Shown here in pieces: positions 3,001 to 56,491 of a DNA stretch of 64,000 bases. A program made the translations under genes and the position numbers. The stretch is from an uncultured virus (IMG/VR IMGVR_UViG_3300020576_002679) (lineage: Duplodnaviria; Heunggongvirae; Uroviricota; Caudoviricetes), in IMG/VR virus record IMGVR_UViG_3300020576_002679; one strand, 5' to 3'. The notes beneath the pieces were generated by a model. That model ran no database searches, was not told the origin of the DNA, and saw only the letters and a list, made by a program, of their open reading frames with translations. Position 1 is the stretch's first letter; every line of letters begins with the position of its first letter.

Positions 3001-6000
3001 AGTATATTTTTCTCTGCCGGTGTTGCATTGCGATTATCCGCCTCTAATTGGCGAAGCAATTTAATTGCATCTATGTTCGCATTTATACGGGCAGTTTCAC
3101 CTTTAGGAACTATAGTCTGCTGAGGTGTGATAACATGGTCAAGCTCATCTACTGCAAGCTGTTTAGAATCATCTGCCACTCCTTTTCGCTCGTCACTTCC
3201 GGTTCTCTGTTTTCCTCCGCTTCCGGTGCTAGGACGTTGGCCGTTACTATCTCCATCGCTTCCGATTCGTTTCGGTTTTGCGCCATCTCCATCTCCTTTA
3301 CCTTTAATGCCTTTTCCACTATCTCCGTCAGGTAAGTTTTCAACTGCCCCGTCTTCGCCAATTCCATTAACTTTTCCTTGTTCCATTCCGCCATCCACTC
3401 CAGGTGAACCTGTGCCTCCGGTGTCTGCCAAATCGGGATTTCCATTTTCTTTGATTTTGGTTAGTATATCTGCAGGCTGCATCTTTTTCAATGCCGCCAG
3501 TTCAGTCATTTTGTTTGTAATCTCATCGGGAGCAACTGCAAGAAACGCACCATAAGCCATCTTTATAGCATCAAAGTTACGCATGGCTCTGTCCTCTCCG
3601 AATCTGCCAACCATATAGGCTAGCATATCATCGAACTTATAAATAGCATTTTCCTTTGCCCCTGTCAGTGCCTTAATTAGCTTTTGCCCTGTGGCAATTT
3701 GCTCCGCCTTAATTTCGGGAACGCCATAAGGTGATTCGTCTTCGCCAACAGCATTAAAGCTATCTAGCTCATCGAAAATATCATCAATATCAGGCCCCTT
3801 TACTTCTTTGGTTTCAGGTTTTTTAGAAACTGGTGCGACTTTCTTTCCACCGTCTGCCGATCCTTTGGCGGGAGTTGGTTTCTTATCTTTTTGAGTAGCT
3901 GCGAGGAGCTCTGTTTCTCGTTTTGCGATTTCATTCGAAATTGATTTATCTTTTAATAATGCCTGAATTTTACCCTCTGCTATCTTTCTCCATTCTGCCA
4001 TTCGCTCCTGAAACGCTTGCGCCTCATCCACTTCTACTGAACTGAACATACCAGGGTTAGCGCGTTGTTGCTTATTATACGCACTTACATCATTAAGTCC
4101 GATAAGTGCAGCGCGCAGATTTTCTACCCCTACATTCTGCATAATGATGAGCATTTCTGCCGCCTCTGCCAATTCTGCTGATGATAATGACGATATGTCT
4201 TTATCTTCAAAAAAGTTCCCTTGATTAAGATAGAACGCAACCGACTTCAAACCTGCTAGGCTTGTTTTTGCCTGAAGCAATAAAGCATCGTTGATAGTTT
4301 TAATGAGTGCGGGGTTATTCTTCTTTATTTCAAAAAGAGGAACGAGCAGGCCGGAGGTAATGGTATTGTAAAGCGAAGTAACGCCCACCACGTCCTTATA
4401 CTGCAAAACTTTCTCATCAATAATTCCCGAGGCAAGTATGGTTTTAAAAAGCTCCTTACCTGTTTCCGTGAATACGCGCGCGCCCTCTCCCTTTGTCAGG
4501 AATAGCGATGGAACTTCTTTAATATCAATGATATCCGAAGCGATAAGATAGTCATAAAGAATTTTAGCAACCTTCGGGTTATTCCAAATCTCACTTAGCT
4601 TATCAGCGTCCGCCTCTTCTATGATACGCGCAAGTCTTTCCCGTTGCTCATCACTTATTTTCTCGCGCATGGTGCCTATCATTTCTTTTGCACTCTTAGT
4701 TTTACCTACTGCGCGAGGATTGTATTTACTCATTTCGGAAGTAGAGTATTCTACCGGCTCTTCGATTACCCGGACAAACACAGGGTTTTTCATTCCCAAT
4801 AAAGCCATGCTGTCTAATCCATAACGGGACCCCTTTTTTGCAAGGTCCGATTCATACTGTGACTGCTTTCCATCTTCTTTCTTCACGGCACCGCTACCAT
4901 GTTTCAGGGCGCGAACAAACGCCATTACCCGCTCATTACCTGATAATACTACATACTTTCCTAAGTCAGCATCCCATGTTACTACCGGACTACCTTCCGC
5001 AACACCAGGGTTATCGGATATACCGCGAGTATCATATTGCTTTTCAGTTGTCAGAACGTTTGCCTGATTTTCCTTTAGCGAATAATCACGGTCATTTTTA
5101 GTAGGGAAATCTTTACTCTCATTGAAAGTAAATGGATCATGCGAAGTCAATAGCTCATCTGCTTCAACTGCCGCAAAACGAGCTTTCTTTTGGGTATTGT
5201 CCGCCAGTCTTACTTCTGCCTCCCCTCCTGATACTTCTGTAGGCGATGCAGTTTTAGAAACATTTTTAGCCGGCTCATCTTCTTTGCCAAAATCAAGTAT
5301 TGCAGATTCAATTACCTGACTGAGAGGAATATCCCAATTCTTTGCCGCCTTATTGGTAATACGGTCCATTACATTCTGTGCAATCTTTATCGTATCGCCA
5401 TCGGTAAGAGGAACATCTAAATTACCCGCTGCCTTGAATACAACATCTTTCAACTGCCGCATATCTTCGTTCTGACGTGCCTTAGTTGCTTTCTCAATAC
5501 CTGATATCTTTAACTCATTCTCTCGAATTTGAGTAGTAATAGCTTTCTTTTCGGAAGTAGATGCACCTTTAAGTTTCCCGCGTAACTGATTATTCTCACT
5601 TACAAGCGGATCTGTTTGCTCCGTACCTTCGAACTCCGCATCTGAATAGCGCATGTGTAAATCAACAACCGGCTTATCTAGTTCATTCGCGTAGTCAATA
5701 ATTGGCTTAGGCTTTTCAGGTTCTACCTTTTTCTCCTCTTTCTTTTCAGCAACCGGTTCAGGCTTTTTTTCTTCGGCAGGTGCTTTCTCCAAATCAGCTA
5801 GCACTTTCTTTTTGAACTCACTGATTTTAGCCTGTTTCTTATCAGGTTCTTTAATACGGAGGATATCAAGTAATTCACCGCGTAGCTCATCACTTCCCTC
5901 CACCGCCTTTTTTAATTTCTGTTCCTGTTCAGGAGTAAACTCATCCACCGGCATTTCTTTTGCACGGTCAGCAGCAGGTTTATAGTTCGCGTACAATTCC

Positions 6001-10486: not shown

Positions 10487-11494
10487 TTATCTTGGTCTTA
10501 CAAATGATTGTCCTAAATAAGAATTTAAGTCTTGTGGCGCATACTCTTCACCTTTCATAGAAAGATATTTACTCATTGCATCTTTTGTTACAGGTCCGTA
10601 TCTTCCATCCACTGAACCGGTATAATATCCCATCCCTTTCAAGAAGCCCTGAATAGATTTTACATCACGTAAGCTGCCTGTTGGCTCTAGTCCAATTTCT
10701 TTAAGTATTGTCATTGCCCCATTTTCTTCTTCGGGCGTAACCATTATACCCTCGTCATTGGTATAATTTGTCATGGACGGCTTAATGCCATTTTGTAAAT
10801 AGTTTTGATTATCGAATTGAGTAGGTGCGGCATCGGCTACTGGAGTTGACGCATCTTTACCAAATACAGAAGTATATTCTCCAGTTGATGTAGATGGAGA
10901 ACCTGCCGCGGCTCCCAAAATACCCGTAAATGCACCAGTTATACCGCTTGTCAACTGATTATCGGCATTGGTTTTATTAGCAGTAGCGGCAGTTTCTAAA
11001 TCATTGGCCTGCTTATATAACTCATCTTGTTGTTGGCGCTTAATAGCTTCATTCCTACTTTGCTCCTGACCGATTATAGTCTTCATGCCAATAAGCTGAT
11101 TGAGTGAATTGGCCCGATAGTTAGCATCTGATGTTTGCAGGTTTCTCACTGCCTGATTTTCCTGTCCGTAAAGCCCGGATAAAAAAGCTAAATAATCTCC
11201 ACCGGATAGAGCGGCCTGCTTTCCTTTAGCTGCCATGTCTGCCATGTTGCCTGAGATACCTTCCTCATATTGCGCATACCCGGGAAGTCCTTTCATAAGT
11301 CCTATTTCCCGCATCTTCTGTGCTTCCAGGTATGCAGGACTTACTTTTGGTGCACGAAGTTTCATAGCCTCCGCTCGTAGCTCACCTTGACGCTTCATTT
11401 GTTCACGCGCTAGCTTACGGTTATTGGAAGATTTGGCGATAGATGTTATCGCTGTTACTCCTGCCATTACCGCTGCCGCTACCATTGGTGTCAT
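10487..11494 (-). CDS. Putative ejection (pilot-type) protein with C-terminal peptidoglycan-binding domain
   Basis: Ala/Gly hydrophobic N-terminus, Q-rich coiled coil, second Gly/Ala segment. C-terminal VKSIQGFLKGMGYYTGSVDGRYGPVTKDAM fits the PG_binding_1 pattern. Confidence 0.65.
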   Translation of the reverse strand: MTPMVAAAVMAGVTAITSIAKSSNNRKLAREQMKRQGELRAEAMKLRAPKVSPAYLEAQKMREIGLMKGLPGYAQYEEGISGNMADMAAKGKQAALSGGDYLAFLSGLYGQENQAVRNLQTSDANYRANSLNQLIGMKTIIGQEQSRNEAIKRQQQDELYKQANDLETAATANKTNADNQLTSGITGAFTGILGAAAGSPSTSTGEYTSVFGKDASTPVADAAPTQFDNQNYLQNGIKPSMTNYTNDEGIMVTPEEENGAMTILKEIGLEPTGSLRDVKSIQGFLKGMGYYTGSVDGRYGPVTKDAMSKYLSMKGEEYAPQDLNSYLGQSFVRPR

Positions 11495-19142: not shown

Positions 19143-20606
19143 CTAGTAATTTAACCACTTTGATAAAGTAGAATTGTATTGTATTTTAATTGCCTGACCT
19201 GCCGTTAATGATACCGGAACATGGCTCTCTACCGTATCTGCATCTGAGCTTAACGTAGTGCTCCATTTCAAGTTTGTTATTACCTGCGTACTTGTCAGCG
19301 ATATTATCTGCCATGCCGTAGGTGTTCCAGGTAAGCGAATTGTAAAGTTGGCAATAGTCCCCGCGGGATTTATTGTATTGTTTTGGGTAACTACCGAAAC
19401 AGAATCACCAGTCAAAGGGGTATATGTAGTTCCTTGTAAATACGGGTCAGTAGGTAAAACTCTTGCTACAAAATCTCCGTTTCCGCTCGTATCTGTAAGC
19501 ACGTAGTTTACTGCACTTGTCATTTGTGGGATGCTGATACTACGGATACCTGCTATTGCGAGTTGGTTGGATGAGGCGATTGCGTTATAGCCTAACGCTA
19601 TTGCATAATTAGAACTTGCCGCTGCACATCTTGCTAATCCACCAATAGCGGTGTTGTAAGAGCCTGTTGTATTTGTGAGTAATGAACTTATTCCAAAGCC
19701 AGAATTGTTTATTCCTGTGGTATTTGCTGTTAGCGATGCTTCTCCGCAACCTGTATTGTATTGCCCTGTTGTATTTGCGGCTAATGACGTTCCCCCAATG
19801 GCAGTATTACTAAAACCTGTCGTGTTTACTAACAGCGAATAACCTCCAATAGCGGTATTTCCTGTGCCAGATGTATTTGCTTTAAGGGCAGAATATCCAA
19901 ACGCTGTGCTTCCTGCATTGTAATCAATTATTCCACTCGCTACATTATTAACTCTAAATCTAAGCGAACCCGTATCTGTTGTTCCCAAAAAGTTTGCAGA
20001 CGGACTTAATGCGCTGTTTCCCGTAATACACCACGGAGCGCAACCAAAACCTAACTTACCTGCCGTATCGGTAACTATAACCGTTTGCCCTGTAGTAATA
20101 GCGGAAACAGGTTTTAAGTAAGTATCTAAACCGTATAAATTTAACGTATCATTGATATTTACTTTCCCATTGAATGTAGTCGTTGAAACAAATGTCCGCA
20201 AATCACTTAAAGAAGAAAAGTAGGTTACTTTTTTCGTAGCAACTCCACCCTGATACACTACATTGAAATTTATGTAGAACTTCTTAATAGGGTAATAAGT
20301 AGATAACGGAGTTTCTCCAAACAGATTTACGTTAGTGTTTGTGGCTACCGTTAAATTTGTCGCATCAAATATCACACTCCATTGCGTTCCCGAAGTTGGC
20401 AAATTAGCATAGGTAAGTGTGTAGGTATTACTACCTAAGTTTACAGTTCCATTGGTTGTTACTAAAAAGTCCTGATTGGCTATTTGCCCGTAAGTAAGAC
20501 TGTTAAGTGTTTGGCCGCCCGCAGGTATGTAATAAGTTGGAGGAGTATTTTGCCCGAATGATAAATCAAAAAGGCATAGTAAAATTGACATTAGAATCAT
20601 TCTCAT
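19143..20606 (-). CDS. Fibre/adhesin-like protein with YadA-head-like repeats and signal peptide
   Basis: 14-aa repeats NTAIGxxSLxxNTTG; WCITGN...NFLGTTD...LRFRVNN segment; N-terminus MRMILMSILLCLFDLSFG|Q. Confidence 0.7.
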   Translation of the reverse strand: MRMILMSILLCLFDLSFGQNTPPTYYIPAGGQTLNSLTYGQIANQDFLVTTNGTVNLGSNTYTLTYANLPTSGTQWSVIFDATNLTVATNTNVNLFGETPLSTYYPIKKFYINFNVVYQGGVATKKVTYFSSLSDLRTFVSTTTFNGKVNINDTLNLYGLDTYLKPVSAITTGQTVIVTDTAGKLGFGCAPWCITGNSALSPSANFLGTTDTGSLRFRVNNVASGIIDYNAGSTAFGYSALKANTSGTGNTAIGGYSLLVNTTGFSNTAIGGTSLAANTTGQYNTGCGEASLTANTTGINNSGFGISSLLTNTTGSYNTAIGGLARCAAASSNYAIALGYNAIASSNQLAIAGIRSISIPQMTSAVNYVLTDTSGNGDFVARVLPTDPYLQGTTYTPLTGDSVSVVTQNNTINPAGTIANFTIRLPGTPTAWQIISLTSTQVITNLKWSTTLSSDADTVESHVPVSLTAGQAIKIQYNSTLSKWLNY

Positions 20607-22237
20607 ATTGATGTTAGTTTTTTTGCTTGATAAATTTGTAATGAAATATCGCCCTCTGCTTGACTTTGCGCTCTTGCCGCAAATGAATAATCATTTACAG
20701 CAAAGTCAGCGCCAGTAAGAGTTCCAATATCGGACCTTATTTGTCTGCTAGCAAGTCCTCCTATATTTGTAACAATGACCTCAGATTTATACTTAACTAC
20801 CATTGCACCCGAAGTATTATCGGCTAGAATGATTTTAGTAAAAAGCTCAATTTGCAAATCTTCTGCTGTGTCTGTATTGGTAATATTTAATGTTTGATTA
20901 ACTACACCAACTCCATTCATTATAGTTGTAACAAAAATGTTTACAGCATTAGGCGCATCAGTAGTTCTATAGCATGAATATAGTTCTATTGTATCACCTA
21001 CATTTACTAGGTTTTTTGCATCGTTCGTATGGTCAGTAGAAAATGTTGATAGAGTTTGAGGCGTTGTAACTGTTGTTAAGTGCTCTTCAGGATCACTATG
21101 TATTAAAGACGTTCCGCTTGCTCCGGGTGTGCCGGCAGTAGGTGTAATAGTGCAAAGAGTTATCCATCCCGCATCACCTACATAGCGATACTGAATAATT
21201 TTATTGCTTCCGCTAGTAAGCGCCTGCATTTCCACCTCGCGGCCATCTGTTCCATCTGTGCACTCGCACGGACCCGCAGGTATAACCGGTGCCACATCAT
21301 CGCAGCAATCGCAATTCGGATCGCACCCGGTAGAAGTATAGAATTTACTTGCGTAGTATGTAACTTTTGCCTCATTACCGCACAATCTAGCTGCTTTTGC
21401 TAGGTCATAATAAACAATACCCTTTAGCAACAAATCCCATGCGCCAACCTGCATAGTAGGGTTACGAACTAGCTCCGCGTATTTGTCTTCCAGTTTTTTA
21501 AGGCAGCAAAACATTTTACACAGCACATCATCGCAAGATGATTTTGCTTCCGTCTTTGCAGTAAAATAAGCATTTACCGTAACTAGATTATCCGAAGTGC
21601 GATAAACAACGTTAGTTGTAAAGTCAGATTCATAGGTGGCAGGGGCCAATAAGTCCGTATGTGTGACAATTTGCCCGCTTCCTACTGTTGGCGTTTGTCC
21701 GCTAGTTTCAGGAGGATATAGGGTATGAACACGGGTATTCGAAATAATATTGTACCCTGAAGCATTATAATTAGTAGTGTCGGTAGAAGTTGCTACAGCA
21801 GTTGTACAATCAAAAGTAATTTCCACTTTTGCCTTAATGCAAGTAAGAGATTTTCTAAGATTGAACTCAAATACTTTCTCTGCATAAACAGTAGTTCCAT
21901 CGTCTACTACTTTCACCTTAACATCTACAAGATAGATTCCTGTTACCGCTTTTCCACCGGCAGTAACATTCAATAAAACATTAGCCAGGGTAGCAGAATC
22001 GGGAGAGCTATAATCGTCACCCGCAAAACCATTATTCTCATAAACAACAATGCCGGAAGGATCGGTTATTTTATACAGGTAGCTAATCGTATCACCACCA
22101 CCAGTATTTACTCCTATTGCTATCCAGTTAGTAGCATCGGTAATACCAATGCTGTTTATAGGAGCAGAAGTTTGATTAAGTTTAAAGAGCGCAGTATATA
22201 AAAGCGCGGCTTCAATTTGTGCTTGCGTAACTGCCAT
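20603..22237 (-). CDS. Structural protein with Cys-rich centre (fibre anchor/decoration candidate)
   Basis: 544 aa, beta-rich; CDDVLCKMFCC and CDPNCDCC...CEC; GTDGREVEM...IQYRYVGDAGW collar-like motif. Confidence 0.5.
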   Translation of the reverse strand: MAVTQAQIEAALLYTALFKLNQTSAPINSIGITDATNWIAIGVNTGGGDTISYLYKITDPSGIVVYENNGFAGDDYSSPDSATLANVLLNVTAGGKAVTGIYLVDVKVKVVDDGTTVYAEKVFEFNLRKSLTCIKAKVEITFDCTTAVATSTDTTNYNASGYNIISNTRVHTLYPPETSGQTPTVGSGQIVTHTDLLAPATYESDFTTNVVYRTSDNLVTVNAYFTAKTEAKSSCDDVLCKMFCCLKKLEDKYAELVRNPTMQVGAWDLLLKGIVYYDLAKAARLCGNEAKVTYYASKFYTSTGCDPNCDCCDDVAPVIPAGPCECTDGTDGREVEMQALTSGSNKIIQYRYVGDAGWITLCTITPTAGTPGASGTSLIHSDPEEHLTTVTTPQTLSTFSTDHTNDAKNLVNVGDTIELYSCYRTTDAPNAVNIFVTTIMNGVGVVNQTLNITNTDTAEDLQIELFTKIILADNTSGAMVVKYKSEVIVTNIGGLASRQIRSDIGTLTGADFAVNDYSFAARAQSQAEGDISLQIYQAKKLTSI

Positions 22238-22256
22238 AGTTTTTCTTTAATCACGA

Positions 22257-22264
22257 CAAATGTA
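22257..22264 (-). promoter_or_regulatory. Bacteroidota-type -7 promoter element (TACATTTG)
   Basis: Matches TAnnTTTG about 20 nt upstream of the 22237 start. Confidence 0.55.
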
Positions 22265-22300
22265 ATGATTCAAAGAATATGCAGAAATAATATTTTACTA

Positions 22301-23209
22301 TTATTCTTCGTCAGCGGCAGTTCTTGCGGCAGCCAGTCTTTCTTCCAGTGATTTGTAGGTGCTTCCATCATCTGTTTTGCGGAACCATTCTACCAATGCT
22401 TTCACCTCATTCACACCTCTAGGTACCGGACAGAAGCCATCGCCATCACCTTCTACAAAGCGCCAGTAACGAACGGCAGGATTGTATTTGATAACCTTGA
22501 ACGCAACTGCCTCCTTAATGCTAGATTCAAACTTTCGATCATCATTTTTAGTAGCTGCTAAGAATTGTTCCGGGTTGTTACGAGCAAAACTCATTAAGAA
22601 CAAATCAATAGCTCTAGAAGAAGCATTATGATCGGCAGATTTATTCAGGATGAGATATACCTGACGGGCCTCAACTTTCGTTAAGCCGCTTGATGCCATA
22701 ACAACTGCTTCAGAAACAAGTTTCTCTTTTCTGTATGCCTGTTCTTCTTCCAGTTCTTTATCCTTAAAGTAGAAGATAAAGGGTTTTGCATGAAGTAAAC
22801 GCGCATATTCAGTGTTATATGCAGGATTCATACTATTATCCGGGTGATTCATTAAGAACCAGTATAAGTCCATTTTTGTTTTTGGGAAACGAAGAAATCC
22901 ATCCAAAAACTCTAATACTTCCGGGGCAAATTTTCCTGTTACCTGAGTTTTTGCACCAGTTCCTCTTGTGAAGTTTTGCGCTTCGCGTTCAACGTAGCGT
23001 ATTTCGCAAGTAGAACCGTCCTTATCTTGAAACTCATAAGTAGGAGCAATCATCATAAGCGGAGCATACATAGGAACCATCCTTCCGGCAGTTACCTCTT
23101 TGTAGTGCTTATAATTATCCGATAAAATAAATTCGAAATTACCCTTTGGCTTTACTGATTTGGTTTCAGTTTTCCACCCGTCCCACTGGACTCCATTTTT
23201 GTAAATCAT
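22301..23209 (-). CDS. Conserved protein downstream of major capsid gene
   Basis: 302 aa; LEFLDGFLRFP...YWFLMNHPDN motif; position as in crAss-like capsid modules. Confidence 0.6.
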   Translation of the reverse strand: MIYKNGVQWDGWKTETKSVKPKGNFEFILSDNYKHYKEVTAGRMVPMYAPLMMIAPTYEFQDKDGSTCEIRYVEREAQNFTRGTGAKTQVTGKFAPEVLEFLDGFLRFPKTKMDLYWFLMNHPDNSMNPAYNTEYARLLHAKPFIFYFKDKELEEEQAYRKEKLVSEAVVMASSGLTKVEARQVYLILNKSADHNASSRAIDLFLMSFARNNPEQFLAATKNDDRKFESSIKEAVAFKVIKYNPAVRYWRFVEGDGDGFCPVPRGVNEVKALVEWFRKTDDGSTYKSLEERLAAARTAADEE

Positions 23210-23281: not shown

Positions 23282-24751
23282 TTACGCCTTTTCCCACAAG
23301 AAGAACTTGTTTAAAGCCATCCATTCAGGTCCCAATTCAGAAACCATTTGGAGCTTGTTCTTGTCATGCGGTTGGTTATTAGCCATGTTGTTACCTCCAC
23401 CGGTATTCCATATTCTCAATTTACGAGAATATCCGTCCATTTCTTTGTAACGCATACCGATTGTAGGAATGTTGTTTTTGGTTTTCGCATCCTTTTCCAT
23501 TTTATTAGGAACTACAATAGCCATACCGGTCAAATCGTAACCAGGTAAGTTATATAGTTTAGGGTGCGAGAAGATATCCATTGACTTAATGTGATAAGTG
23601 TGGCTACCGATAGTAATAGACTTAAAGCCTATTTCTAAATCTTTCACCGGCTGCATACCTTGTTTCGAGAACACGATAGCGTTAGATGAGAAGAAGTCAG
23701 TAAACAACTGCTCCCATTCATTTTCGATATCTACACCGGCAAACGTAATGAAGTCACTACCTGCAAAATACTTCTTTTGTTTCTTCTGCATTTGGTAAAA
23801 CAGAGGGATAGAGAAGAACCCGGCAGTATAGGTACCGTTCAAACCTTTAGTTCTGATTTCAGGAACTAAGCCGCTTACTCCGCGGTGTCCGTCAGCTACA
23901 AGGGTTGCCTGTGTAATAGGATTATCAAAAAGAAACGCACCGTCAGTATATGCGCGTAAACGGAACTCAGCATCTAACTGGCCTTTTACGTGGTAACCTC
24001 CGATATCCTTTCCGTCACTCATTACAGTAATCCATTTACGGTTAGTAAGCTCACTGTTAGTAACATCGAACGCTTCCATTAAGATTTTCACTCCGTAAGT
24101 AATCTTACTTACTTTAGAAAGTCTACCTGCAGGCGTATCGCTACCTTCGGGGAAGGAGTTAGAGTAGATGCTCAATTCCTGACCGGCAGCAAGAGCACCA
24201 ATATTAGCCGTTGCAAGGTGAGGATAAACGCGCAATACCGGAAGCGGACCGCTAGTGTTTACATTATAAACTTTACCTGTTACTTGATTCGGGAAAAGAA
24301 CATCATCCCAAAGGCGAGGGTAAAACTTATTCGAGCTATCCACGTTAGAGGCACTGATAGTAAGGTCTACGAAGTTACCTGCACCAGGGTCAGCAACGTT
24401 TTGGCTCAAAGTAAATGTTTCAATAATCCAATCTTCTTCGAAGTGGCTAAACGTAGATTGATCTACAGCACTTTCGTAACCTAATGATTGAATAGTATCA
24501 AGGAAGCCTAACCCTTGGTCGTTAAACCTGCGGATGAGGGTATTTCTAATCGAAGGTTTCTGAATATCTAAAAGCGAGATATAACGCTCGTTATCCGGTG
24601 CGGTAGTAGCACTAGGACTGTGAATAGGGCTTAAGCCTAAATTAGAATTTATGGCAAACGGATTCGCCAACATTGCTTCCGCAAATGCAAACAAAAGAAG
24701 CATCGGGAGCATGAAAAAAGCTCTGAGTTTTTTATAAGTTGTAGGTTTCAC
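23282..24751 (-). CDS. Major capsid protein with signal-peptide-like N-terminal leader
   Basis: 489 aa after the scaffold gene and followed by a terminator; FPEGS, GVSGLVPEIRTKG, IGFKSIT and HPKLY segments typical of crAss-like/Bacteroidota MCPs. GTG start in A-rich context. Confidence 0.8.
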   Translation of the reverse strand: MKPTTYKKLRAFFMLPMLLLFAFAEAMLANPFAINSNLGLSPIHSPSATTAPDNERYISLLDIQKPSIRNTLIRRFNDQGLGFLDTIQSLGYESAVDQSTFSHFEEDWIIETFTLSQNVADPGAGNFVDLTISASNVDSSNKFYPRLWDDVLFPNQVTGKVYNVNTSGPLPVLRVYPHLATANIGALAAGQELSIYSNSFPEGSDTPAGRLSKVSKITYGVKILMEAFDVTNSELTNRKWITVMSDGKDIGGYHVKGQLDAEFRLRAYTDGAFLFDNPITQATLVADGHRGVSGLVPEIRTKGLNGTYTAGFFSIPLFYQMQKKQKKYFAGSDFITFAGVDIENEWEQLFTDFFSSNAIVFSKQGMQPVKDLEIGFKSITIGSHTYHIKSMDIFSHPKLYNLPGYDLTGMAIVVPNKMEKDAKTKNNIPTIGMRYKEMDGYSRKLRIWNTGGGNNMANNQPHDKNKLQMVSELGPEWMALNKFFLWEKA

Positions 24752-24783
24752 TGTATTTGATTTAAGATTTTTTAAAATGTGGT

Positions 24784-25866
24784 TTATCCTCCTAGTTGCT
24801 GAATGATACCGTCTGCTAACTGCCGGTCTGTTGATGTTGCCGTTGGTCCACCGTTTCCGTTATTATTGGAAGAGAAATCGGGATTGTTCAACACTTGATC
24901 CCACCATTGGTTATTTTGACTTTTACCATGCGTGAGTAAGGCTGCGGTTAAAGCAGGTAGATTGCGAATAATGGCGCGGTCAGTAAGAATTTGCTTTACA
25001 AGGGCAACTCCCTTTTCATCCGCCAGTAGCGAAGGGGATTGTTGAATAAGCGCATCAACGTCTTTTATAAGAACGTCAGCGTTACCCACCTTGAAAGGAA
25101 ACTCAAAACTTGGCTTTCCATCTTTGCCAACTCCTACAGGAACTCTAATCTCTCCAAATTCCTTTTTCAGGTTTTCTTTAACACCCTGCCATGAGTTAAT
25201 ACGGTTAGCGTTATTTTGCTCCGCGGTAACTGCATCCCGGCTTTTACCGAGTTCTAGCATTTTATTTTTGAACTCCTGAGTCTTCGGTCTTTCTTCTCCG
25301 GCATCTACTTTCAACTGAAGCAAGCCATCTTTCTCATCCTGTTCATCTTTCTTAAAGTCACCTAAGCCATATTTTTTGTCAATCAGGCGAGAGGCTTCTT
25401 CTTTAGTTAATCCGGGAGTTTTTAAAGTCATAGCCATAGCCATGAAATCCCGATTATCCATTTTTTCAAAATCTGTTTTCAGATAAGTGATTGCAGTGTC
25501 AGGATCAATATTCTGCGATAACAATTCATCTAATGCCTTACCCATGGCGGACTTGTACGGGCTTGCTGTTAGCTGTTCCTTATACTGATTATGCTCCTGC
25601 ATGCGAACCGGAAGGTCCGTTAAACTAATACCAAACCTGTCGGTCAGTACCTTGTTAAGGGCATCGTCATTTAAAGATTGCTGTTGTTGGTTATTCTGCT
25701 GATTAGCCGAATCGCCTGCTGCTGCCGAAGATGAAGAAGCATTGCTTTTATCATCATTTTTACCCGAATTATTGTCTGCGTTCGCATTTGATTGGTTGTT
25801 ACCTGCGCCCGCAGCATTAATAACTGCTTGGATATCGTCAGAATCATTTCCGTTTGAAGGAGTCAT
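24784..25866 (-). CDS. Capsid scaffolding-like protein
   Basis: Between portal and MCP; low-complexity N/Q/D/S N-terminus and helical body. Confidence 0.65.
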   Translation of the reverse strand: MTPSNGNDSDDIQAVINAAGAGNNQSNANADNNSGKNDDKSNASSSSAAAGDSANQQNNQQQQSLNDDALNKVLTDRFGISLTDLPVRMQEHNQYKEQLTASPYKSAMGKALDELLSQNIDPDTAITYLKTDFEKMDNRDFMAMAMTLKTPGLTKEEASRLIDKKYGLGDFKKDEQDEKDGLLQLKVDAGEERPKTQEFKNKMLELGKSRDAVTAEQNNANRINSWQGVKENLKKEFGEIRVPVGVGKDGKPSFEFPFKVGNADVLIKDVDALIQQSPSLLADEKGVALVKQILTDRAIIRNLPALTAALLTHGKSQNNQWWDQVLNNPDFSSNNNGNGGPTATSTDRQLADGIIQQLGG

Positions 25867-25893: not shown

Positions 25894-28287
25894 TTAAACA
25901 ATATTTTGATTTTCCAAACTTACAGCATGAGCAGTTTCATCTTTCGCCAGTTTACTCTTCCCTGCGTCCTGCCCTGCCTGTATCAATCCAGTTGCTTGTA
26001 GTTTGCGAATATCCTCATTGGTTTTATGCGTGTATTGCTCATTCTTAGCTTTAGTATCGGCAGCCAGGTCCGCATTTTTCAATTCAGATTTTGTCTTCTC
26101 AACCTGTGAAAGATTTTCCGCATTTTGTTTACTAATGAGAGCGCTTTCTTCCTGTGCCTTGCGCTTGAATCTGCGTATGCGTTGGTTGAGTATCATTTCA
26201 ATCAACTTCAAATCTGTATCATTTGAAAGGAGTCTTACAATTTCAAGATAGTCTGCAAACTCAATACCTCCCTTAGTAGGGTCCTGAGAACTCTGCAGCG
26301 CTGTTTTAGCCGCTTCCAGTATTCTAGCTTTACTTTCCTGTGTAGGACGAGCAACAAAGCGGGTATTGAAAATATATTGCTCACTGTCTTCCAGTCCGAT
26401 AACAATATTCTGCACTCCCATTTGACCTAGCACCGGAACAAACGTGGTGAAGTTGCCAGTGTACTTAACTATCATTTGAATTTTCAAAAGAACGTCCTTC
26501 ATGGTAATTTCTTCCAATGCAAGCGCGCCTGATATCATAGGCCATATAGCATTATTGGCACTTTCAAATGCCTGTTGTTGAACGCCAACAAGCAAGTCTG
26601 TTTGAGGCGCTGCACCCGAAGCCATAATTTCATTTATGCCGGTTACTTCACGAATCATATTGATATCGTTCATTAACGACTGTGTAAGTTCGGCAAATTC
26701 TCTACCGAGGCCGCCCTTTGTTTCTGTTACCGGTGGACCGCTATTATCAATGCCGTCATCGTCCTGTGTGGAATTTCTTCGATAAACAATAATACCAGTC
26801 TGTGTAGCAATTTCTAAAAGCTCCTTAGCTGTCATTTTCTTTCCATCGAGAAAGACATTTTCAAACGCGCCAATCTCTACCATGATACCCTTCGGCATCG
26901 CGCGCGCTTTAAGATTTTGAATACGCAGCCAGGTAAGCTGAATACTGTCCGCGAAGGTAATTGCTCTTTCTAGCGGTGACTTATTAGATACCCGGTAAAA
27001 CTTATAACGCTTGTAACACTGCTGAGGGTTCAATACTTCCCGCGAAATATTTTTAAGCAATCCATAATCGTAGATGAAGTTTGTATTAATTACCCACTTA
27101 CCAGTATAAACCGTAGCGATATCTTTGCACTTTACTTCTTTACTGTAAATACTTCCATCGTCACGCACAGCCTTAGTCTTACCTACGGGCTCATTGAAAT
27201 CTCTCTTGTAAGTATTAGTAGCTCCGTACTTATCATTATCCTCAAACTTGTAACGGTCTACGCTATCGTAGTCCATATCCATCACGTAAACTTCACACAT
27301 ATCATACTCTCTGTATTTAATGTATTGAAGGTCCGTATTCACATAATCATTCCATGGCAACATTTGCAACGGGTTATTAAAGTAACCCACAAACGCCATT
27401 GCCATTTCGTAATATTCCTGTTCTGTAAATTGATCGCCCGCCTCTAGCTTTAACTGCCCGATAGTCAATTTACGAATCTCACCAATGCGCGTCATTTTCC
27501 CTCCATCATGGCCGCGGAAATCCATAAGTATCTGATTGATTGGATCTGTAGCCCGCATGTAAGGCTTCTTTGCCTTGCGGTCAATATCTACACAAGTACC
27601 GGCACAGCCTAAATCAAATATATTTTCACGAATAAGTTTTTGAGATTCTTTCCACCGGCTATCATATTGCACTCCCATTATAGCCATTTCATATAGCGCT
27701 TCGGAGGCAAGCCGGAAGTTATTTGTCATGTAGAGGTCGAGCTCCTCTTTTGTTTCCGGTAGAAATTCCTCCTGCGAGTTTAAATCAATGCCTGACTTTT
27801 CGCTCATTTCTTTGAAGAACTTAGCCAGTAACATTTCTCCTTCCAGGCGGGCGCGTTCACTTTTTCTTTCCTGACTTGCAGTCGGGTTAATGGCATCTAC
27901 CATTACCGTGTATTGCATCTTCTCCCAATGCGATAAAACTACATCACGAAACTTCGGGATGATAGAAACAATACTCCAATCTAAGTCAAGATAACTAACC
28001 GGACGGTTCTGAGCATTTTTCAGCTTGGTCATCCACTTTATATACTTGGAGGTAGATTGATTGCCATCCGCATACATTCTGTTTTCTATCCAGTCTTGAC
28101 GCTTACCGTAGTTAAACATTCCGCCACTTAGCTTGTGGACGTTGTAGGCCGCTTTAAAATACCGTAGCTGATACTCCCGTGTTTTTTTGACTTCGGGATC
28201 AACTAGGTCAGATGGAAAACGCGCCATTTCGTCCGATGAAGGGAGGTCACTTCGTCCGCTAGCGGATGATGATTTTGTTTCTGCCAT
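25894..28287 (-). CDS. Portal protein
   Basis: 797 aa; RMYADGNQS..KY, SYLDLDWSIVSIIPKF, ATQTGIIVYR and INMIREVTGINE motifs of crAss-like portals. Confidence 0.85.
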   Translation of the reverse strand: MAETKSSSASGRSDLPSSDEMARFPSDLVDPEVKKTREYQLRYFKAAYNVHKLSGGMFNYGKRQDWIENRMYADGNQSTSKYIKWMTKLKNAQNRPVSYLDLDWSIVSIIPKFRDVVLSHWEKMQYTVMVDAINPTASQERKSERARLEGEMLLAKFFKEMSEKSGIDLNSQEEFLPETKEELDLYMTNNFRLASEALYEMAIMGVQYDSRWKESQKLIRENIFDLGCAGTCVDIDRKAKKPYMRATDPINQILMDFRGHDGGKMTRIGEIRKLTIGQLKLEAGDQFTEQEYYEMAMAFVGYFNNPLQMLPWNDYVNTDLQYIKYREYDMCEVYVMDMDYDSVDRYKFEDNDKYGATNTYKRDFNEPVGKTKAVRDDGSIYSKEVKCKDIATVYTGKWVINTNFIYDYGLLKNISREVLNPQQCYKRYKFYRVSNKSPLERAITFADSIQLTWLRIQNLKARAMPKGIMVEIGAFENVFLDGKKMTAKELLEIATQTGIIVYRRNSTQDDDGIDNSGPPVTETKGGLGREFAELTQSLMNDINMIREVTGINEIMASGAAPQTDLLVGVQQQAFESANNAIWPMISGALALEEITMKDVLLKIQMIVKYTGNFTTFVPVLGQMGVQNIVIGLEDSEQYIFNTRFVARPTQESKARILEAAKTALQSSQDPTKGGIEFADYLEIVRLLSNDTDLKLIEMILNQRIRRFKRKAQEESALISKQNAENLSQVEKTKSELKNADLAADTKAKNEQYTHKTNEDIRKLQATGLIQAGQDAGKSKLAKDETAHAVSLENQNIV

Positions 28288-28743: not shown

Positions 28744-28860
28744 TTACTCAGTTGTATAAAAGAAAAGTCCATCACCTACCTCCGCCTCTTGAAGCGCTAG
28801 CATTATTTCATAATACTTATCAAGGTCAACTACAAACAATATTTTTTCTTCCTCTGCCAT
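28744..28860 (-). CDS. Small hypothetical protein (38 aa)
   Basis: MAEEEKILFVVDLDKYYEIMLALQEAEVGDGLFFYTTE*; TGATG coupling to terL; fills the gap exactly. Confidence 0.55.
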   Translation of the reverse strand: MAEEEKILFVVDLDKYYEIMLALQEAEVGDGLFFYTTE

Positions 28861-31055
28861 CAATATTCTCTTAAGTCCCACAACATACCTTCGTGATTTT
28901 CGGGTTCCGGGTTTGCCTGCTTCTTCCGCATTGCTCCGCCCTTGCTTCCATAAATAGCATATCCACCGGCTACAAAATAATCGAAAGGGTTCCAGTTTCC
29001 ATACTCAACGTCTTTGCAGTCTTGTAGAAATTCAGAAAACACACACCTGCGCGCGGAAGTTTCTATGTAAGTTCCTACCAAACCGAATACCGGTTCTTTG
29101 ATGGCATCGCCTAGCGTTGTCATGCCCGGTGTTTTTGATTCTTCAATTTTTACACCGCTGCCTTTCTTCTTCTTCTTTACAATATTACGGTATTTCAGGA
29201 AGTGATGATAGCCGCGTTCTGTAATGTAATCCCATAAAGAAGCTACGTTAATTTCGGGGAATATCGGCATCCCTAGAAAGTGACAGGACATAATCATATC
29301 TTCACCGTAACGCCTTTTATCCTGAAAGCGCCAACCATACTGCATTATATAATCATCGGTGAGATAATCTTCTTCATCGCGCCCCTCTTCTACTTCCAGT
29401 ATCAGGTTCATAAACGCCATGGCAGTTCCTAGACTTCGCCTGTCTGAGTTAGTAGCGTTGTATTTGTATGGATCGGCACCGATAGTTCCTGCATGTTTAT
29501 TACCAGGTGCAGGGCATCCATCGGAGGAATGTTTAAATACATTATTAGAAGTATCTATAAGATACTCAATCAATGCGCGCTTAAATAGCCATCGCCCATT
29601 TTCGCACTCCGTGAATATTACTTTAGTGTCCTTTTCATTATTCTCCCATGCAAGGTTTCCAACAACAACATCGTCATTGCCGTAAAGGAAATCATCTAAC
29701 CGCTCATCAATCTTTAGCATGTTAAACTCACAGTCTTTCGGATTAGTACGAAGTGCTTCGCGTATGGTCCGCGGGTACATGTGAATAATCTTCTGCCGTT
29801 CAATAGGATCGGTTTCAGCATTAATTTCTATATCCACCATTTCTGCACCTCCCTTATCAAAATGCCGGTCACCTTTTGACTTTAGCCATTCCATTTGATA
29901 CGGCAGCGGGTCATTAATAATAGAGGCACCGAACTGATCGAATTTGTATGTTTCAGGTGCACCTTTAAAGAAACGAACGAGGCCGCTCTTAGTTTGACCT
30001 AATGCCGTGAGCTTAGTCGGGTCATGGTCCGATTGGTTCCACACCTTTTTAAACTCAATGAGTCCACCCTTAGTAGTTTCCTCAATAGTAGTAGTAAGCA
30101 GCGCCTTTCCAACTACCCGATCACGCACACGCAAACATTGTTTGTGAACGCGCCATGCTTGACTGATAAGCATTTCCTCTGTCTTACCGCACTCATCGTC
30201 AAAATAAAAACCTAGCTTCTGTCCGTCAAACGCAGTGTGCACGGTTGAACGCGCTTCGATAGAAGAGTGCAACTCATCACTCGTAAGCTCTGCCAGTGTA
30301 TCATCCTCATCAAATTCTATTTCGGAATCACTATCACGGAACTTTATTTCCTTAACCGGATATGTTTTGTTATCATACTTAGGGGAGAAGTAGAAGGGTA
30401 ATTTTCTCCATGGCAATACTACTACACGCTGAAACAAATCTTTTGCATCATCGTTTGTTTTTGACTGCATACCTACGTGATAATTCAGTTCCGAAGTAGC
30501 ATTAAACAAACAGCTATTGCCGCCACGGTAAGACTTACCGTCACGCCTCATAGTCATTTCGATACCGCCATATACCCAAGGTTCCTTCTCTACTACTTCT
30601 TCCCACCAGTAGTAATATTCGGCATCTATGAAACGGAAGTCGGGCAAACCATCATCCAGGTAGTAGTAGTTACAATAGTGCCAGTGCTTCGGTGTGATGT
30701 AAACCGGTTTACCATAAATGTAAATCCAAAACCCGTTATTTTTTTTCTCCCACTGCGAAGCAACAAAGCTCTCATAGTCCTTATTCCGCCTTACAATATC
30801 TAGCACCTCGATACGCCCTGATATCCCCTCCTTACCTTTCTTCTGTGCGGTGCGTGTCATTTTCCAAACCCAATTCGGAACAATCTCCCGCTGAAAAAAC
30901 TGCTTCTCTACCGGCAGGCCAAAGTTGGCAATCTTCTCAGGGTGCGGAGGTTCAGGAAGAGTTACCTTGTATGGAGTAATACCATCAATGTTCTTTCGGA
31001 GAGTTATATTTCTTTCCGGGTCCTGATATTTCGTGTATTTTGGGTTAATCAGCAT
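28860..31055 (-). CDS. terL: Terminase large subunit
   Basis: RRDGKS Walker A, FYFDDECGK Walker B, GADPY nuclease, FPEIN and FDYFVAGG; crAss-like type. Confidence 0.9.
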   Translation of the reverse strand: MLINPKYTKYQDPERNITLRKNIDGITPYKVTLPEPPHPEKIANFGLPVEKQFFQREIVPNWVWKMTRTAQKKGKEGISGRIEVLDIVRRNKDYESFVASQWEKKNNGFWIYIYGKPVYITPKHWHYCNYYYLDDGLPDFRFIDAEYYYWWEEVVEKEPWVYGGIEMTMRRDGKSYRGGNSCLFNATSELNYHVGMQSKTNDDAKDLFQRVVVLPWRKLPFYFSPKYDNKTYPVKEIKFRDSDSEIEFDEDDTLAELTSDELHSSIEARSTVHTAFDGQKLGFYFDDECGKTEEMLISQAWRVHKQCLRVRDRVVGKALLTTTIEETTKGGLIEFKKVWNQSDHDPTKLTALGQTKSGLVRFFKGAPETYKFDQFGASIINDPLPYQMEWLKSKGDRHFDKGGAEMVDIEINAETDPIERQKIIHMYPRTIREALRTNPKDCEFNMLKIDERLDDFLYGNDDVVVGNLAWENNEKDTKVIFTECENGRWLFKRALIEYLIDTSNNVFKHSSDGCPAPGNKHAGTIGADPYKYNATNSDRRSLGTAMAFMNLILEVEEGRDEEDYLTDDYIMQYGWRFQDKRRYGEDMIMSCHFLGMPIFPEINVASLWDYITERGYHHFLKYRNIVKKKKKGSGVKIEESKTPGMTTLGDAIKEPVFGLVGTYIETSARRCVFSEFLQDCKDVEYGNWNPFDYFVAGGYAIYGSKGGAMRKKQANPEPENHEGMLWDLREY

Positions 31056-31693
31056 TATTTAGCTTGCCGTTTACGCGCATTTTCTTCCGGTGTGATAGCC
31101 CTTCTCTCTTCCAGTATTCTTTGCGATGCCATATAATCAGCTAGGCCGTTATCGCTTTGAAACACTTTTTCACTCATCTTATCAATGTTAGCTTTCATAT
31201 CCTGAATAGTCTTGAATATCGAGGCACGGTTTTTAATATCCAGTGATTTGCCCGAGTCACTTATCAGCGCTTGATTGTAACTGTAGTAAGCCTCTATCTG
31301 CAGCGCCAGTGCCATGTAGTCCATATCGCCCTCGAACTTCAAGAACTGCATTACCGCATCCACTACTCTACGATTATCATTTCCGAACAGGTCCTTTATT
31401 TCTTCTGCCTCGTAACTTTTTATCCCGCAAAGGAAAAGAGCGTATTGTTTCCGCTGAAAAATATCCTGCACCTTTCTAACTAACGGGCTTTTCTTATGAT
31501 ACGTGTAGATGATGAAACGGAATACCTGATCTTTAGTCATACTCGGTATATCGAAGCCCTCTCCGTCCTCAAACTCCTGAAAGATATTATACAGTTGAGG
31601 GAAGATAACTGTTACAGGCTTTTCAGGCGGAACTTCGTGTATGTTCCACCGCATATCTGTATAATCATTTGGGCTTATTTTTTCGCTACTCAT
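31055..31693 (-). CDS. Hypothetical protein, terminase small subunit candidate
   Basis: Coupled directly upstream of terL; helical. Confidence 0.45.
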   Translation of the reverse strand: MSSEKISPNDYTDMRWNIHEVPPEKPVTVIFPQLYNIFQEFEDGEGFDIPSMTKDQVFRFIIYTYHKKSPLVRKVQDIFQRKQYALFLCGIKSYEAEEIKDLFGNDNRRVVDAVMQFLKFEGDMDYMALALQIEAYYSYNQALISDSGKSLDIKNRASIFKTIQDMKANIDKMSEKVFQSDNGLADYMASQRILEERRAITPEENARKRQAK

Positions 31694-32673
31694 ACCGTTG
31701 CTTCTTCTAGTATCATTACAATTTCAGGCTGACGCACCATATACTCACCGGTATCTAGCATAGTTGCACCCGCTAAGATAAAATAAACTCTGTCACCGGG
31801 CTTTACGTCTGTCACCAATCCACCGATTTCAGAAACGGTGCCGATGCTGTGTTGCTTACGCGCAGATTCAGGGATGAGGAAGCGGCCTGCTTCTTTTTTA
31901 ATCGGTTCAGGAACAATTACCACCTTATCCGAGAACGGCATCGGGAAGCCATTCTCCATAGTGCAAAAAATATCATCCACCAACATATAAATATACCGCT
32001 TATCCAGGGTGATGTTATAGGAGTTCTCTATGCACACGTCACTTTCCTGCTCATGCAGAATTATCTCATCTATTTCTAATCCCGAATCAAGCGGTGCAGC
32101 AACAACTTTTGCCAGTAGCTTTTTATGTTTCTCCCACTGAAGCAGAAGGATAGGCGATTTTGTTTCCTTGTTGATGATGGCATTACCATAGCCCTCTATA
32201 AATTGCTCTTCTGTTTCCGATGGCAACTGTTCTGCTACCACGTAGTTATTGAGCGAATAGATTTCATCATTCCGAACGTAGCAGATTAAAAAGCCATACG
32301 GAATAAGCAGGTACCGCTCTATCTTTCCGTCTACTTCATTCTCGAAATAGCCGCCCGACTGATGCCATTGCTTACCGAGCTCTACCGCATTTTGTTCAAA
32401 GTAAACTGTATCACCATTAGCGATAAGCGGTTCTTTTACTACGCGAAGTTTTTTCCCTAGCCCTTTACCGTATCGTATGATATCAGTCACATGGATAATC
32501 GGAGCAATAGCCACTACCGTTCCACGAACTACCGCATGCCGCTCTTTCTCATAGCTCAGGTCTACATACAACTGCAAACCACCGGCAGTTTTAATAGTTT
32601 CGTCTGCTTCGTAAAGTTTCAATAGCACCAAGCCGCTGCCCGGTTCAAATTTGTTTGGATCAATGTTATTCAT
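31690..32673 (-). CDS. Tandem GroES-like co-chaperonin (three repeats)
   Basis: KTAGGLQL..RGTVVAI..GDTVYF; LNNYVVAE..AKVVA; PFSDKVVI..FLIPESA..GTVSEIG..VKPGDRVYF. Confidence 0.7.
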   Translation of the reverse strand: MNNIDPNKFEPGSGLVLLKLYEADETIKTAGGLQLYVDLSYEKERHAVVRGTVVAIAPIIHVTDIIRYGKGLGKKLRVVKEPLIANGDTVYFEQNAVELGKQWHQSGGYFENEVDGKIERYLLIPYGFLICYVRNDEIYSLNNYVVAEQLPSETEEQFIEGYGNAIINKETKSPILLLQWEKHKKLLAKVVAAPLDSGLEIDEIILHEQESDVCIENSYNITLDKRYIYMLVDDIFCTMENGFPMPFSDKVVIVPEPIKKEAGRFLIPESARKQHSIGTVSEIGGLVTDVKPGDRVYFILAGATMLDTGEYMVRQPEIVMILEEATV

Positions 32674-33004
32674 GCTTCTTAAATGTGGTGTATAATTGTT
32701 TTCGCTTACTCTTTTTTTCAGGTTCCGGCAGCGGGTCAGGATTAACTACATTTTCTGCCATGAACTTTAAATGCACCTCCTTTAACAATTCCCGAGAATC
32801 CGGTTCATGTTCATATTTATTGTGGTGTTCTCTGCAACCGCCCATTAAGTTAGTAATATCATTTTCTAAATGCCTATAATTTTTCTTGGGATAAATGTGC
32901 ATTACATCAACTGCTCTTTGTCCGCATCCGGGTATTTCGCAAATCATAAAATCACAAGTTGCGTAACCGAAGTAATGTAGATAGACTTTAGTGTAATGCT
33001 TCAC
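32666..33004 (-). CDS. HNH-like endonuclease
   Basis: CEIPGC..AVDVMHI..NLMGGCREHH. Confidence 0.7.
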   Translation of the reverse strand: MKHYTKVYLHYFGYATCDFMICEIPGCGQRAVDVMHIYPKKNYRHLENDITNLMGGCREHHNKYEHEPDSRELLKEVHLKFMAENVVNPDPLPEPEKKSKRKQLYTTFKKHE

Positions 33005-33393
33005 TTCTTACCAGTTTTGTAAAAGTTCACGCCATCATGCAGCAACTTCTTCCCTTTCTCAGTAGCAACTATCATTCTGCCCTTCCCTTCCACCTCCACA
33101 ATTTTCAACTTCCCGTTTTTGATATTTCGGTTAAGGTCTGCTACCAGTTCCGTTTTTTCATCTACACGCATGCGCGCCCATATTCTACGCTCCCCTACAC
33201 GCATAGGGTATTTCTTACCATTATGCTCTACTTCTCCCCATTCATCTTCGTTGCGCCACTTCTCCGAATAAGTCTGCTTCACCCGTTGTAGGTGAAGATA
33301 GTAAGGGAAAATAATTACAAACATGAGGAATAGCAGGAAGCCTACTGTTATCCAGGTATCAGAATCGCGGAGGGAGTTCAGGAATGTTTCCAT
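33001..33393 (-). CDS. Hypothetical membrane-anchored protein
   Basis: One N-terminal transmembrane segment; coupled to neighbours. Confidence 0.6.
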   Translation of the reverse strand: METFLNSLRDSDTWITVGFLLFLMFVIIFPYYLHLQRVKQTYSEKWRNEDEWGEVEHNGKKYPMRVGERRIWARMRVDEKTELVADLNRNIKNGKLKIVEVEGKGRMIVATEKGKKLLHDGVNFYKTGKK

Positions 33394-44502: not shown

Positions 44503-44778
44503 ATGAAAAAGCTACTAACAACACTATTACTCGCCTTATTCCTCTCTAGCGCAGTAATCGCACAGACACCAGTAAAGAAAGAGGGCAACACATACACAGA
44601 AGTAAGGAAAGTTCCAACCGTAGCAGGGCTAACTAAGAAAGCTACTAAAGACGGCACTAACTTCATAACAGCGACAGGCGATGTTCTACCTGTATGGAAG
44701 TCAGTAAACGGTAAACTGTTTGTTATACGGATATCAGGGAAGACAGGAGAGCCCTACAAGCAGTATATTCAGGAATAG
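44503..44778 (+). CDS. Small secreted protein
   Basis: Signal peptide MKKLLTTLLLALFLSSAVIA|Q. Confidence 0.7.
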   Translation: MKKLLTTLLLALFLSSAVIAQTPVKKEGNTYTEVRKVPTVAGLTKKATKDGTNFITATGDVLPVWKSVNGKLFVIRISGKTGEPYKQYIQE

Positions 44779-52895: not shown

Positions 52896-53729
52896 TTAAA
52901 ATCCTCCTTCCGGCAGTTCAGGCTTAGTAGCGCCTTTAACCGCCCACATTGCCGCAGTTTCCATATCGTTCTGGGCACCGGTAAAGCCACGTTGAGCTAA
53001 ACCGCTTAAAGATTGATTTGCAAAACTTACAGCAATATTGAAGCAACGCGCAGCTTCCGGGTTAGTTGCGCGAGCTTCTTCCACTTCGCACACAGCCTTG
53101 AAGTCCTGACCAGTCTTTTTAGCATCCTCATCCGCTCTTCTTTCGATTTGTTGGATGAAGCCCGCTGCCAGTGCCTTAAGTTCATTTACCTTCGCATGGC
53201 CGCCCGGATTGAACGAAATACCTACACGATATTCGCCTAAAGTCAATTTTCTAGGCAATAAACCAGTTCCACTTTTAGGGTCCACTTCAGGCTCAGGCTG
53301 TTTATCACCTGCAAATACCTCCTCCTTTGCAACTTCTTCTACCAATTCTACCTTAGCAGCCTTTAACTCTTCTTCGGTTTTATCCTTCAAAGCATCCACT
53401 ACCGCGCAGAATAAGGCATCTTTCTTCTGCTGAAACACCGGCAATTCTTCGAACGGAACGATACAAGGGTGCGTTTTTGCATCGGCATCCTTTGTTTCTC
53501 CGTAAACCCAACCGGCATCTACTTTGTCCTTCATCCAAGCATTGTGCTGTGCATCTTTGCCGGCTTCAGGGTTATCTAAACGGAACTCAACGCCCTTGAT
53601 AGCGCTTTCACGCTGCCATTCTTCGGCTTCGTCCCAATCCTTTTGTGATGTGTCACCGTTGGCTTCACACCACGCTTTGTTTGCCTGATGGCAAACGATG
53701 GCGATTAATACTACCATTTCTTTGTTCAT
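52896..53729 (-). CDS. RyR-domain protein fused to Acb2/Tad1-like hairpin domain
   Basis: HNAWMKDKVDAGWVYGETKDADAKTHPCIVPFEELP (RyR), then LGEYRVGISFNPGG...ELK...ETAAMWAVKGATKP. Start MNKEM at 53729. Confidence 0.7.
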   Translation of the reverse strand: MNKEMVVLIAIVCHQANKAWCEANGDTSQKDWDEAEEWQRESAIKGVEFRLDNPEAGKDAQHNAWMKDKVDAGWVYGETKDADAKTHPCIVPFEELPVFQQKKDALFCAVVDALKDKTEEELKAAKVELVEEVAKEEVFAGDKQPEPEVDPKSGTGLLPRKLTLGEYRVGISFNPGGHAKVNELKALAAGFIQQIERRADEDAKKTGQDFKAVCEVEEARATNPEAARCFNIAVSFANQSLSGLAQRGFTGAQNDMETAAMWAVKGATKPELPEGGF

Positions 53730-53757
53730 GATATAATTGATTTGGTTAAAAAAACTA

Positions 53758-55942: not shown

Positions 55943-55945
55943 AAT

Positions 55946-56479: not shown

Positions 56480-56491
56480 AGTGTTACGTTT

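Follow-up and report, generated by a model that had tools for sequence, protein, structure and literature searches.

The window analysed here, a 64,000-nt stretch of DNA from an uncultured, apparently crAss-like phage, contains on its minus strand an open reading frame (23282..24751) that starts at a GTG codon and encodes a 489-residue major capsid protein precursor with a hydrophobic N-terminal leader. Homologues without such a leader are hereinafter designated leaderless. The window corresponds to bases 1-64000 of a 72,460-bp contig. The contig ends share an overlap of ~70 nt and one ORF spans them, and two close relatives are 72.4 kb long, with terminal repeats in one of them; on these grounds the 72-kb genome is taken as apparently complete, despite a CheckV completeness estimate of 63%. 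The ORF that runs across the ends (window 1..8942 plus 65455..72460 of the full contig, G000; both on the minus strand) encodes ~5,300 residues with ddrB-like ParB, Eco57I-type methylase, helicase and RadC-like JAB domains, and we take it to resemble a DarB-type polyvalent protein.

The capsid gene lies in a minus-strand array with the order GroES-like, terminase, portal, 360-aa scaffold-like, capsid, 302-aa, 544-aa, ring-like genes and muzzle-like gene. The terminase large subunit (28860..31055) and the portal protein (25894..28287) match phrog_6681 (E 6.9e-66) and phrog_6547 (E 6.5e-57), respectively. The 360-aa product of 24784..25866 gave no family match in our searches; its position makes it a probable scaffolding protein, and an orthologue is present in all ten genomes compared. 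The GroES-like co-chaperonin (31690..32673; PF00166, E 2.3e-10), also encoded by leaderless relatives, is a possible helper in cytoplasmic folding of the capsid protein. Two conserved genes 3' of the capsid gene (20603..23209) encode the 302-aa and 544-aa proteins, and the match to the muzzle domain PF25729 further along the array is just under the cut-off. Just upstream of the GroES-like and terminase genes, 33001..33393 (minus strand) encodes a small single-helix membrane protein that is also present in two leaderless genomes (G005 and G006).

The nearest annotated phages belong to Pachyviridae, Pervagoviridae and Elemovirus, with 22-29% identity to the nearest cultured phages in terminase and portal (for the family context, see PMC8776804). 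These relatives, together with A-rich starts that lack Shine-Dalgarno sequences (PMC6847099) and four signal peptides that obey the Bacteroidota Q-rule (Gln at +1), point to a Bacteroidota host. No prophage relative was found in scans of bacterial genomes. The four proteins with a signal peptide followed by Gln are encoded by 19143..20606, 62512..63693 and 63675..64919 on the minus strand, the last running past the window end, and by 44503..44778 on the plus strand. The first of these genes is part of the structural operon, and its product has matches to virion-structural and tail-spike PHROGs, which would place exported fibre-like proteins in a virion operon. The second protein contains collagen repeats, and G005 and G006 encode similar signal-peptide proteins. 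Elsewhere on the minus strand, 52896..53816 encodes a RyR domain and a weak Acb2/Tad1 hairpin match (E 0.0012, under the cut-off), possibly an anti-defence nucleotide sponge, and 53758..59461 holds a glycosyltransferase/methyltransferase cluster (GT_PLOD, Methyltransf_24, GT2 and a weak Mannosyl_trans3), which could serve to modify either the virion or the surface of the host. A cargo-like protein with a moderately hydrophobic N-terminus (10487..11494, minus strand) is kept in 10/10 genomes, and its window copy ends in a peptidoglycan-binding domain.

The capsid assignment is based on homology to solved and curated HK97-fold capsid proteins of the crAss-like/SU10-like type. The 489-aa protein matches phrog_13704 from residue 35 onward (E 5e-23), a profile of 24 family members matches capsid chain 9IN6 (E 1.3e-6), and 12-56% of the members of its Atlas look-alikes (0.98) bear PF23898 Crass_capsid. 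PF17236 is found in 8 of the 24 profile members, with no match in the window protein itself. Used alone, the window capsid sequence gave no match in PDB and none among GenBank phages; a leaderless relative used as query matched phi38:1, Calle and Panino, and the family profile matches Pachyviridae, Pervagoviridae and Elemovirus capsids (phi13:2, phi38:1, elemoE and Panino) at E 4e-55 to 3e-36. The order terminase, portal, scaffold-like protein and homologous capsid protein is likewise shared with Pachyviridae, Pervagoviridae, Elemovirus and crAss001 (PMC10172136).

The leader begins with a basic n-region of residues 1-8 (24728..24751; K2, K7 and K8, with R10 next), followed by a hydrophobic core of residues 9-23 (24683..24727), whose central Pro is kept in the close clade, and by A-E-A at residues 24-26 (24674..24682), a candidate signal peptidase I site that reads A-D-A in a close strain. 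M27 comes directly after A24-E25-A26 and opens a linker of residues 27-39 (24635..24673) that ends in Leu-Gly, with Gly39 as the candidate final cut site. The layout of GTG start, basic residues, hydrophobic core, A-E-A and M27 given by the original prediction is thus borne out. Over 15 residues, the Kyte-Doolittle mean peaks at 2.10 in the leader and at 0.97 in the remainder of the protein, and no such stretch among the first 40 residues exceeds 1.56 in any of 136 leaderless homologues; only 38 of 5000 shuffles of the 117-nt leader DNA are both open and equally hydrophobic. The basic n-region, the hydrophobic h-region and the small residues at -3 and -1 (A-E-A, not scored against chance) together conform to a Sec/signal peptidase I substrate; the Gln at +1 that marks the majority of Bacteroidota substrates, though not all, is absent from the window leader. 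An Atlas search with residues 1-45 returned no usable match.

Comparison with leaderless sister proteins shifts the boundary of the added segment, which had been placed at residue 26. The start Met lies 23 residues before an anchor Asp in 7/7 sister proteins, and Gly39 of the window protein likewise lies 23 residues before Asp62. A cut after Gly39 would therefore restore the ancestral N-terminus, so the added unit comprises residues 1-39 (24635..24751) and A-E-A is at most a first cut. The close strain protein P0170 shares 30/39 leader residues and 444/450 core residues with the window protein, and a leader that drifts while the core stays fixed is the behaviour of signal peptides.

Translation very probably starts at the GTG at 24751, judging from initiation context and comparison of relatives. 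Between the scaffold stop and the GTG lies an A-rich, unstructured initiation region without a Shine-Dalgarno sequence (24752..24783; A at -3, -6 and -12). With a start matrix built on 33 unambiguous starts of the genome and a background of 377 internal ATGs (99th percentile 3.3), the GTG scores +5.4, and the ATGs at 24712 (codon 14), 24703 (codon 17) and 24673 (codon 27) score -2.6, -6.0 and -8.1. The predicted folding energy is 0.0 kcal/mol in the GTG region and -12.2 kcal/mol at 24673. Both measures go against initiation at Met 24673, the outcome that the original prediction had named as its refutation. In four other leader-bearing loci with DNA, the start ahead of the leader is also A-rich and weakly folded. 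An exceedingly unlikely alternative is that residues 1-26 represent untranslated or neutral upstream DNA and that the protein begins at Met14 or Met27. One gene caller did call the window protein from Met14 (P0002), GTG is less common as the start of an abundant protein, and the leader sequence changes fast. However, apart from the start scores and folding, Met14 is replaced by Leu in P0170, which was called from residue 1, and the 13 other clade members have a start Met ahead of the hydrophobic core. Strain indels also avoid the leader: strain contigs from another study (X3 and X4) show no alignment gaps in it (all 8 and all 7 gaps examined), and have four gaps within 33 nt at or before the GTG and a net 2-nt shift just upstream of it; in a further contig (X5), gap positions are known for 3/8 gaps only.

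In a first search that returned 24 homologues, a hydrophobic leader is present in seven non-self matches of 49-79% identity, and in two more distant ones. The upstream segment is thus conserved, against the second refuting condition of the original prediction. A profile search yielded 1506 representatives, the best 150 of which were among the matches listed, and 28 of the 164 capsid proteins kept for the tree carry a leader, in one- or two-helix form. The tree leaves out P0002, three fragments (P0128, P0157 and P0145) and P0031, whose start is ambiguous and whose leader is possibly clipped; P0049 and P0161, with short hydrophilic extensions, were counted as leaderless. A basic-then-hydrophobic leader is present in 14/14 members of the window's clade (support 0.997) and in 0/7 members of its sister clade, whose proteins are 43-48% identical to the window protein. 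At two sister-type loci (L002 and L003) an in-frame stop lies 1-2 codons before the Met, and at 79 of 80 loci with DNA, a set that includes these two and many near-duplicates, the Met is within 9 codons of an in-frame stop, so that where DNA exists leaderlessness is not a calling error. The leader occurs in 4/35 loci of a second set and in none of five annotated GenBank relatives (four cultured phages and one metagenomic record).

On the 164-row tree the leader label requires at least 6 changes, compared with 26-28 in five label shuffles, and a 38-row IQ-TREE phylogeny also gives 6 changes, all forced by starred branches; these counts are blind to gain versus loss, the tree root not being known. 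At two distant loci (L134 9968-10070 and L137 8132-8220), a one-helix leader ends in Leu-Ala and the apparent ancestral start Met follows directly behind, which looks like the footprint of a leader added upstream. The context of these retained Mets is neither A-rich nor weakly folded. The scattered minority pattern, the Met kept behind the leader at these two loci and the dissimilarity of the leader sequences favour repeated gain of the leader within one capsid family.

Adding L134 and L137 to the 28 tree leaders gives 30 leaders for comparison. By our threshold, 21/30 contain one hydrophobic segment and 9/30 contain two, with P0013 a possible tenth two-helix leader. Their n-regions contain 69 K/R and no D/E. 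The segment after the helix in the 21 one-helix leaders has 17 D/E versus 4 K/R, and the loops of the nine two-helix leaders have 11 D/E versus 3 K/R; after the second helix there is a weak positive signal (7 K/R versus 5 D/E). Under the positive-inside rule, the first helix is predicted to insert with a cytoplasmic N-terminus, and a two-helix leader would bring the capsid domain back to the cytoplasm. An [LFM][GA] junction near the ancestral start is found in 24/30 leaders, where shuffles would give 9.6; among leaderless N-termini it occurs in 10/136. The motif window was picked once the leaders had been inspected, and the rows lack independence, with one clade supplying 14 of the 30 leaders. 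A prepilin-peptidase cut at the Gly was considered and rejected, as no hydrophobic helix follows the Gly.

The one-helix leaders with an acidic C-side look like true export signals, which would place the subunit at risk of ending up in the periplasm. With its textbook n/h/c layout, A-x-A and acidic segment past the helix, the leader could indeed serve Sec export of some or all subunits to the periplasm (as a decoy, a superinfection block or a second role), the cytoplasmic pool being supplied by failed export or an internal start. The two distant loci that keep a Met directly behind the leader would suit such an internal start; elsewhere the internal Mets are in poor contexts, and a Met near the ancestral start is found in only 7/30 leaders. 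A small-x-small-Gln candidate site is present in 4/30 leaders and missing from 26/30, yet it occurs in four other proteins of the same phage and, in P. gingivalis, in more than 60% of the substrates of signal peptidase I (PMC5837995). Moreover, 9/30 leaders have two helices. Since portal and scaffold lack a signal and most leaders have no Q-rule site, plain export is decidedly unlikely.

For gene content, we compared five leader-bearing with five leaderless genomes, the leader-bearing set consisting of the window genome and four genomes from another leader clade. Three of these four are partial, and G000 and G001 appear to be complete. L001 and L114 are 100% matches to the window protein, and no DNA was found for the other members of its 14-member clade. 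All ten genomes share the core head genes, and in this 5 versus 5 comparison no gene family occurs in the five leader-bearing genomes while missing from the leaderless ones. A Pfam scan of 76 distinct ORFs found no protease family apart from the RadC-like JAB domain in the giant ORF. S78 prohead protease (PF04586), Prp (PF04327) and signal peptidase were each found in 0/5 leader-bearing genomes, and rhomboid (PF01694) in 0/5 leader-bearing and 0/5 leaderless genomes. The Bacteroides control genome encodes signal peptidase and rhomboid, with no Prp. Neither G000 nor G001 encodes a protein with three or more helices. As the original prediction stated, there is no protease gene between portal and capsid, only the 360-aa scaffold-like gene, but the missing prohead protease carries no weight as an argument because leaderless relatives have the same core head genes. 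With no recognisable phage protease, any processing would have to come from a host or unrecognised enzyme.

The leader might also work without any membrane step. As a soluble propeptide, akin to a mini delta domain or the 80alpha leader, it would pack on scaffold, chaperonin or subunits, delay assembly and be trimmed by a cytoplasmic protease. The conserved junction in register with the mature N-terminus and the GroES-like gene of the phage fit such a propeptide, and the host-cut capsid leader of 80alpha can be dispensable (PMC5744158). However, hydrophobicity, helix length, the one- and two-helix forms and the asymmetric charges suit a bilayer better. No leader was found on portal, scaffold, 302-aa or 544-aa protein in either group, and the scaffold N-terminus has no hydrophobic patch; a matching scaffold leader and an available Prp, the hallmarks of the 80alpha system, are thus both missing in the genomes searched. 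A soluble propeptide is accordingly about as improbable as export.

A leader that is never removed would leave hundreds of anchors on the shell, drawing host membrane into or onto the procapsid and giving a lipid-containing tailed virion. This is very unlikely: the lack of a protease gene and the two-helix leaders, whose predicted topology puts the capsid domain on the cytoplasmic side, would agree with retained anchors, but close leaderless sisters have the same head genes, no gene family is unique to leader-bearing genomes and the conserved small-residue junction suggests a cut. In an unlikely but broader variant, each subunit would be anchored by its own helix or hairpin and the membrane would template the procapsid, with a host intramembrane or signal protease maturing it or with anchors and lipid staying in place.

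We favour, at a probability of about one half, an optional membrane-targeting propeptide that would hold new subunits at the inner membrane until a host membrane protease removes it. The first 39 residues of the 489-aa precursor would form this propeptide ahead of the ancestral start. The basic N-terminus would remain cytoplasmic while the hydrophobic helix inserts into the host inner membrane, and the capsid domain would remain in or slide back to the cytoplasm, where it would fold and meet scaffold and portal. The leader would then be cut off by a host membrane protease, in the simplest case signal peptidase I acting at A-E-A and/or an enzyme that cuts after Leu-Gly, to give a product whose N-terminus is in register with leaderless relatives, such that the leader would not be part of the mature shell. 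The leader would be an accessory that brings shell assembly to the membrane or delays it there, a benefit that we infer. Leaderless sisters presumably build the same head, which makes the leader step dispensable. As predicted from sequence features, membrane insertion of the leader is quite likely and its removal is likely.

The original prediction, in which the leader tethers capsid assembly to the inner membrane or is cut by host signal peptidase, is therefore retained in part. Charges, hydrophobicity, helix forms and junction register argue, by inference, for a membrane-targeting and probably removed leader. Cleavage by signal peptidase I at A-E-A fares less well, as the conserved junction (G39) comes 13 residues later, 26 of the 30 leaders lack a Q-rule site and the junction of two-helix leaders is predicted to be cytoplasmic, where signal peptidase could not reach it. 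A cut at A-E-A alone would leave 13 extra residues, and an Asn at position -3 of the G39 site goes against the usual signal peptidase rule. Signal peptidase I is thus a tentative, somewhat doubtful candidate for the cutting enzyme. The predicted side of the junction also differs between forms, outside for one helix and inside for two, and one enzyme cannot easily serve both; signal peptidase itself acts on the outer side of the membrane (PMC5837995). The main weakness of the proposal is topological, in that with one-helix leaders the junction is outside and the subunit must afterwards slide back.

Several known systems share individual features with this arrangement. The filamentous phage M13 procoat is a coat protein with a leader cut by host leader peptidase; this integral membrane protein is small and belongs to a phage that has no tail and is extruded, in contrast to the 450-residue HK97-type shell protein of the window. 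In Nixviridae, a Bacteroidota phage group represented by a Porphyromonas gingivalis prophage, the available text and supplement of PMC10367356 report predicted signal peptides at the start of the major capsid protein (SignalP Sec/SPI, positive in 5 of 7 supplement rows examined) and assume cleavage, for which the authors invoke a phage prohead protease. That capsid protein belongs to an unrelated 668-670-aa family (PHROG 21862; PMC10367356), and a short hydrophobic stretch heads a long acidic extension that we read as delta-domain-like. In the window family, by contrast, a leader of one or two strongly hydrophobic helices joins the N-arm directly, and the genomes searched yielded no protease. 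Staphylococcus phage 80alpha also has a short N-terminal leader on an HK97-fold capsid protein, cut by host Prp with no phage protease involved; it is 13-14 residues long, is cut at F|A and is common to scaffold and L27 (PMC5744158). The window leader differs in its 39-residue length, its membrane-type character and its absence from the scaffold, and Prp is missing from both the phages and the Bacteroides control. In phage T4, head assembly is tied to the inner membrane and the head is freed after proteolysis; the anchor acts via the portal with gp40 and YidC, and the phage's own prohead protease cuts (PMC9958956). The candidate anchor of the window phage would instead be on every capsid subunit. 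For the closer relatives, the terms 'signal peptide' and 'protease' do not occur in the available text of the crAss001 paper (PMC10172136), and that of PMC8143477 contains nothing on a capsid signal peptide. Our literature search, with most subscription papers and preprint supplements outside its reach, found no description of an HK97-type capsid protein, crAss-like or otherwise, that bears a membrane-type leader.

The accepted view is that soluble subunits assemble into HK97-type shells. The known membrane step, that of T4, acts via the portal, which makes a leader on the capsid subunit itself surprising for a shell of this type. The finding also bears on annotation, as automatic gene calls cut such proteins short (P0002, called from Met14) or would mark them as secreted. 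Sister phages with and without the leader would form natural test pairs in which the function of the leader can be tested by swaps. If the proposal is true, a repeatedly gained membrane leader on the capsid subunit, in phages without a recognisable protease of their own, would add a host-dependent step to head assembly, and maturation would depend on a host membrane protease, which anti-phage defence might then target.
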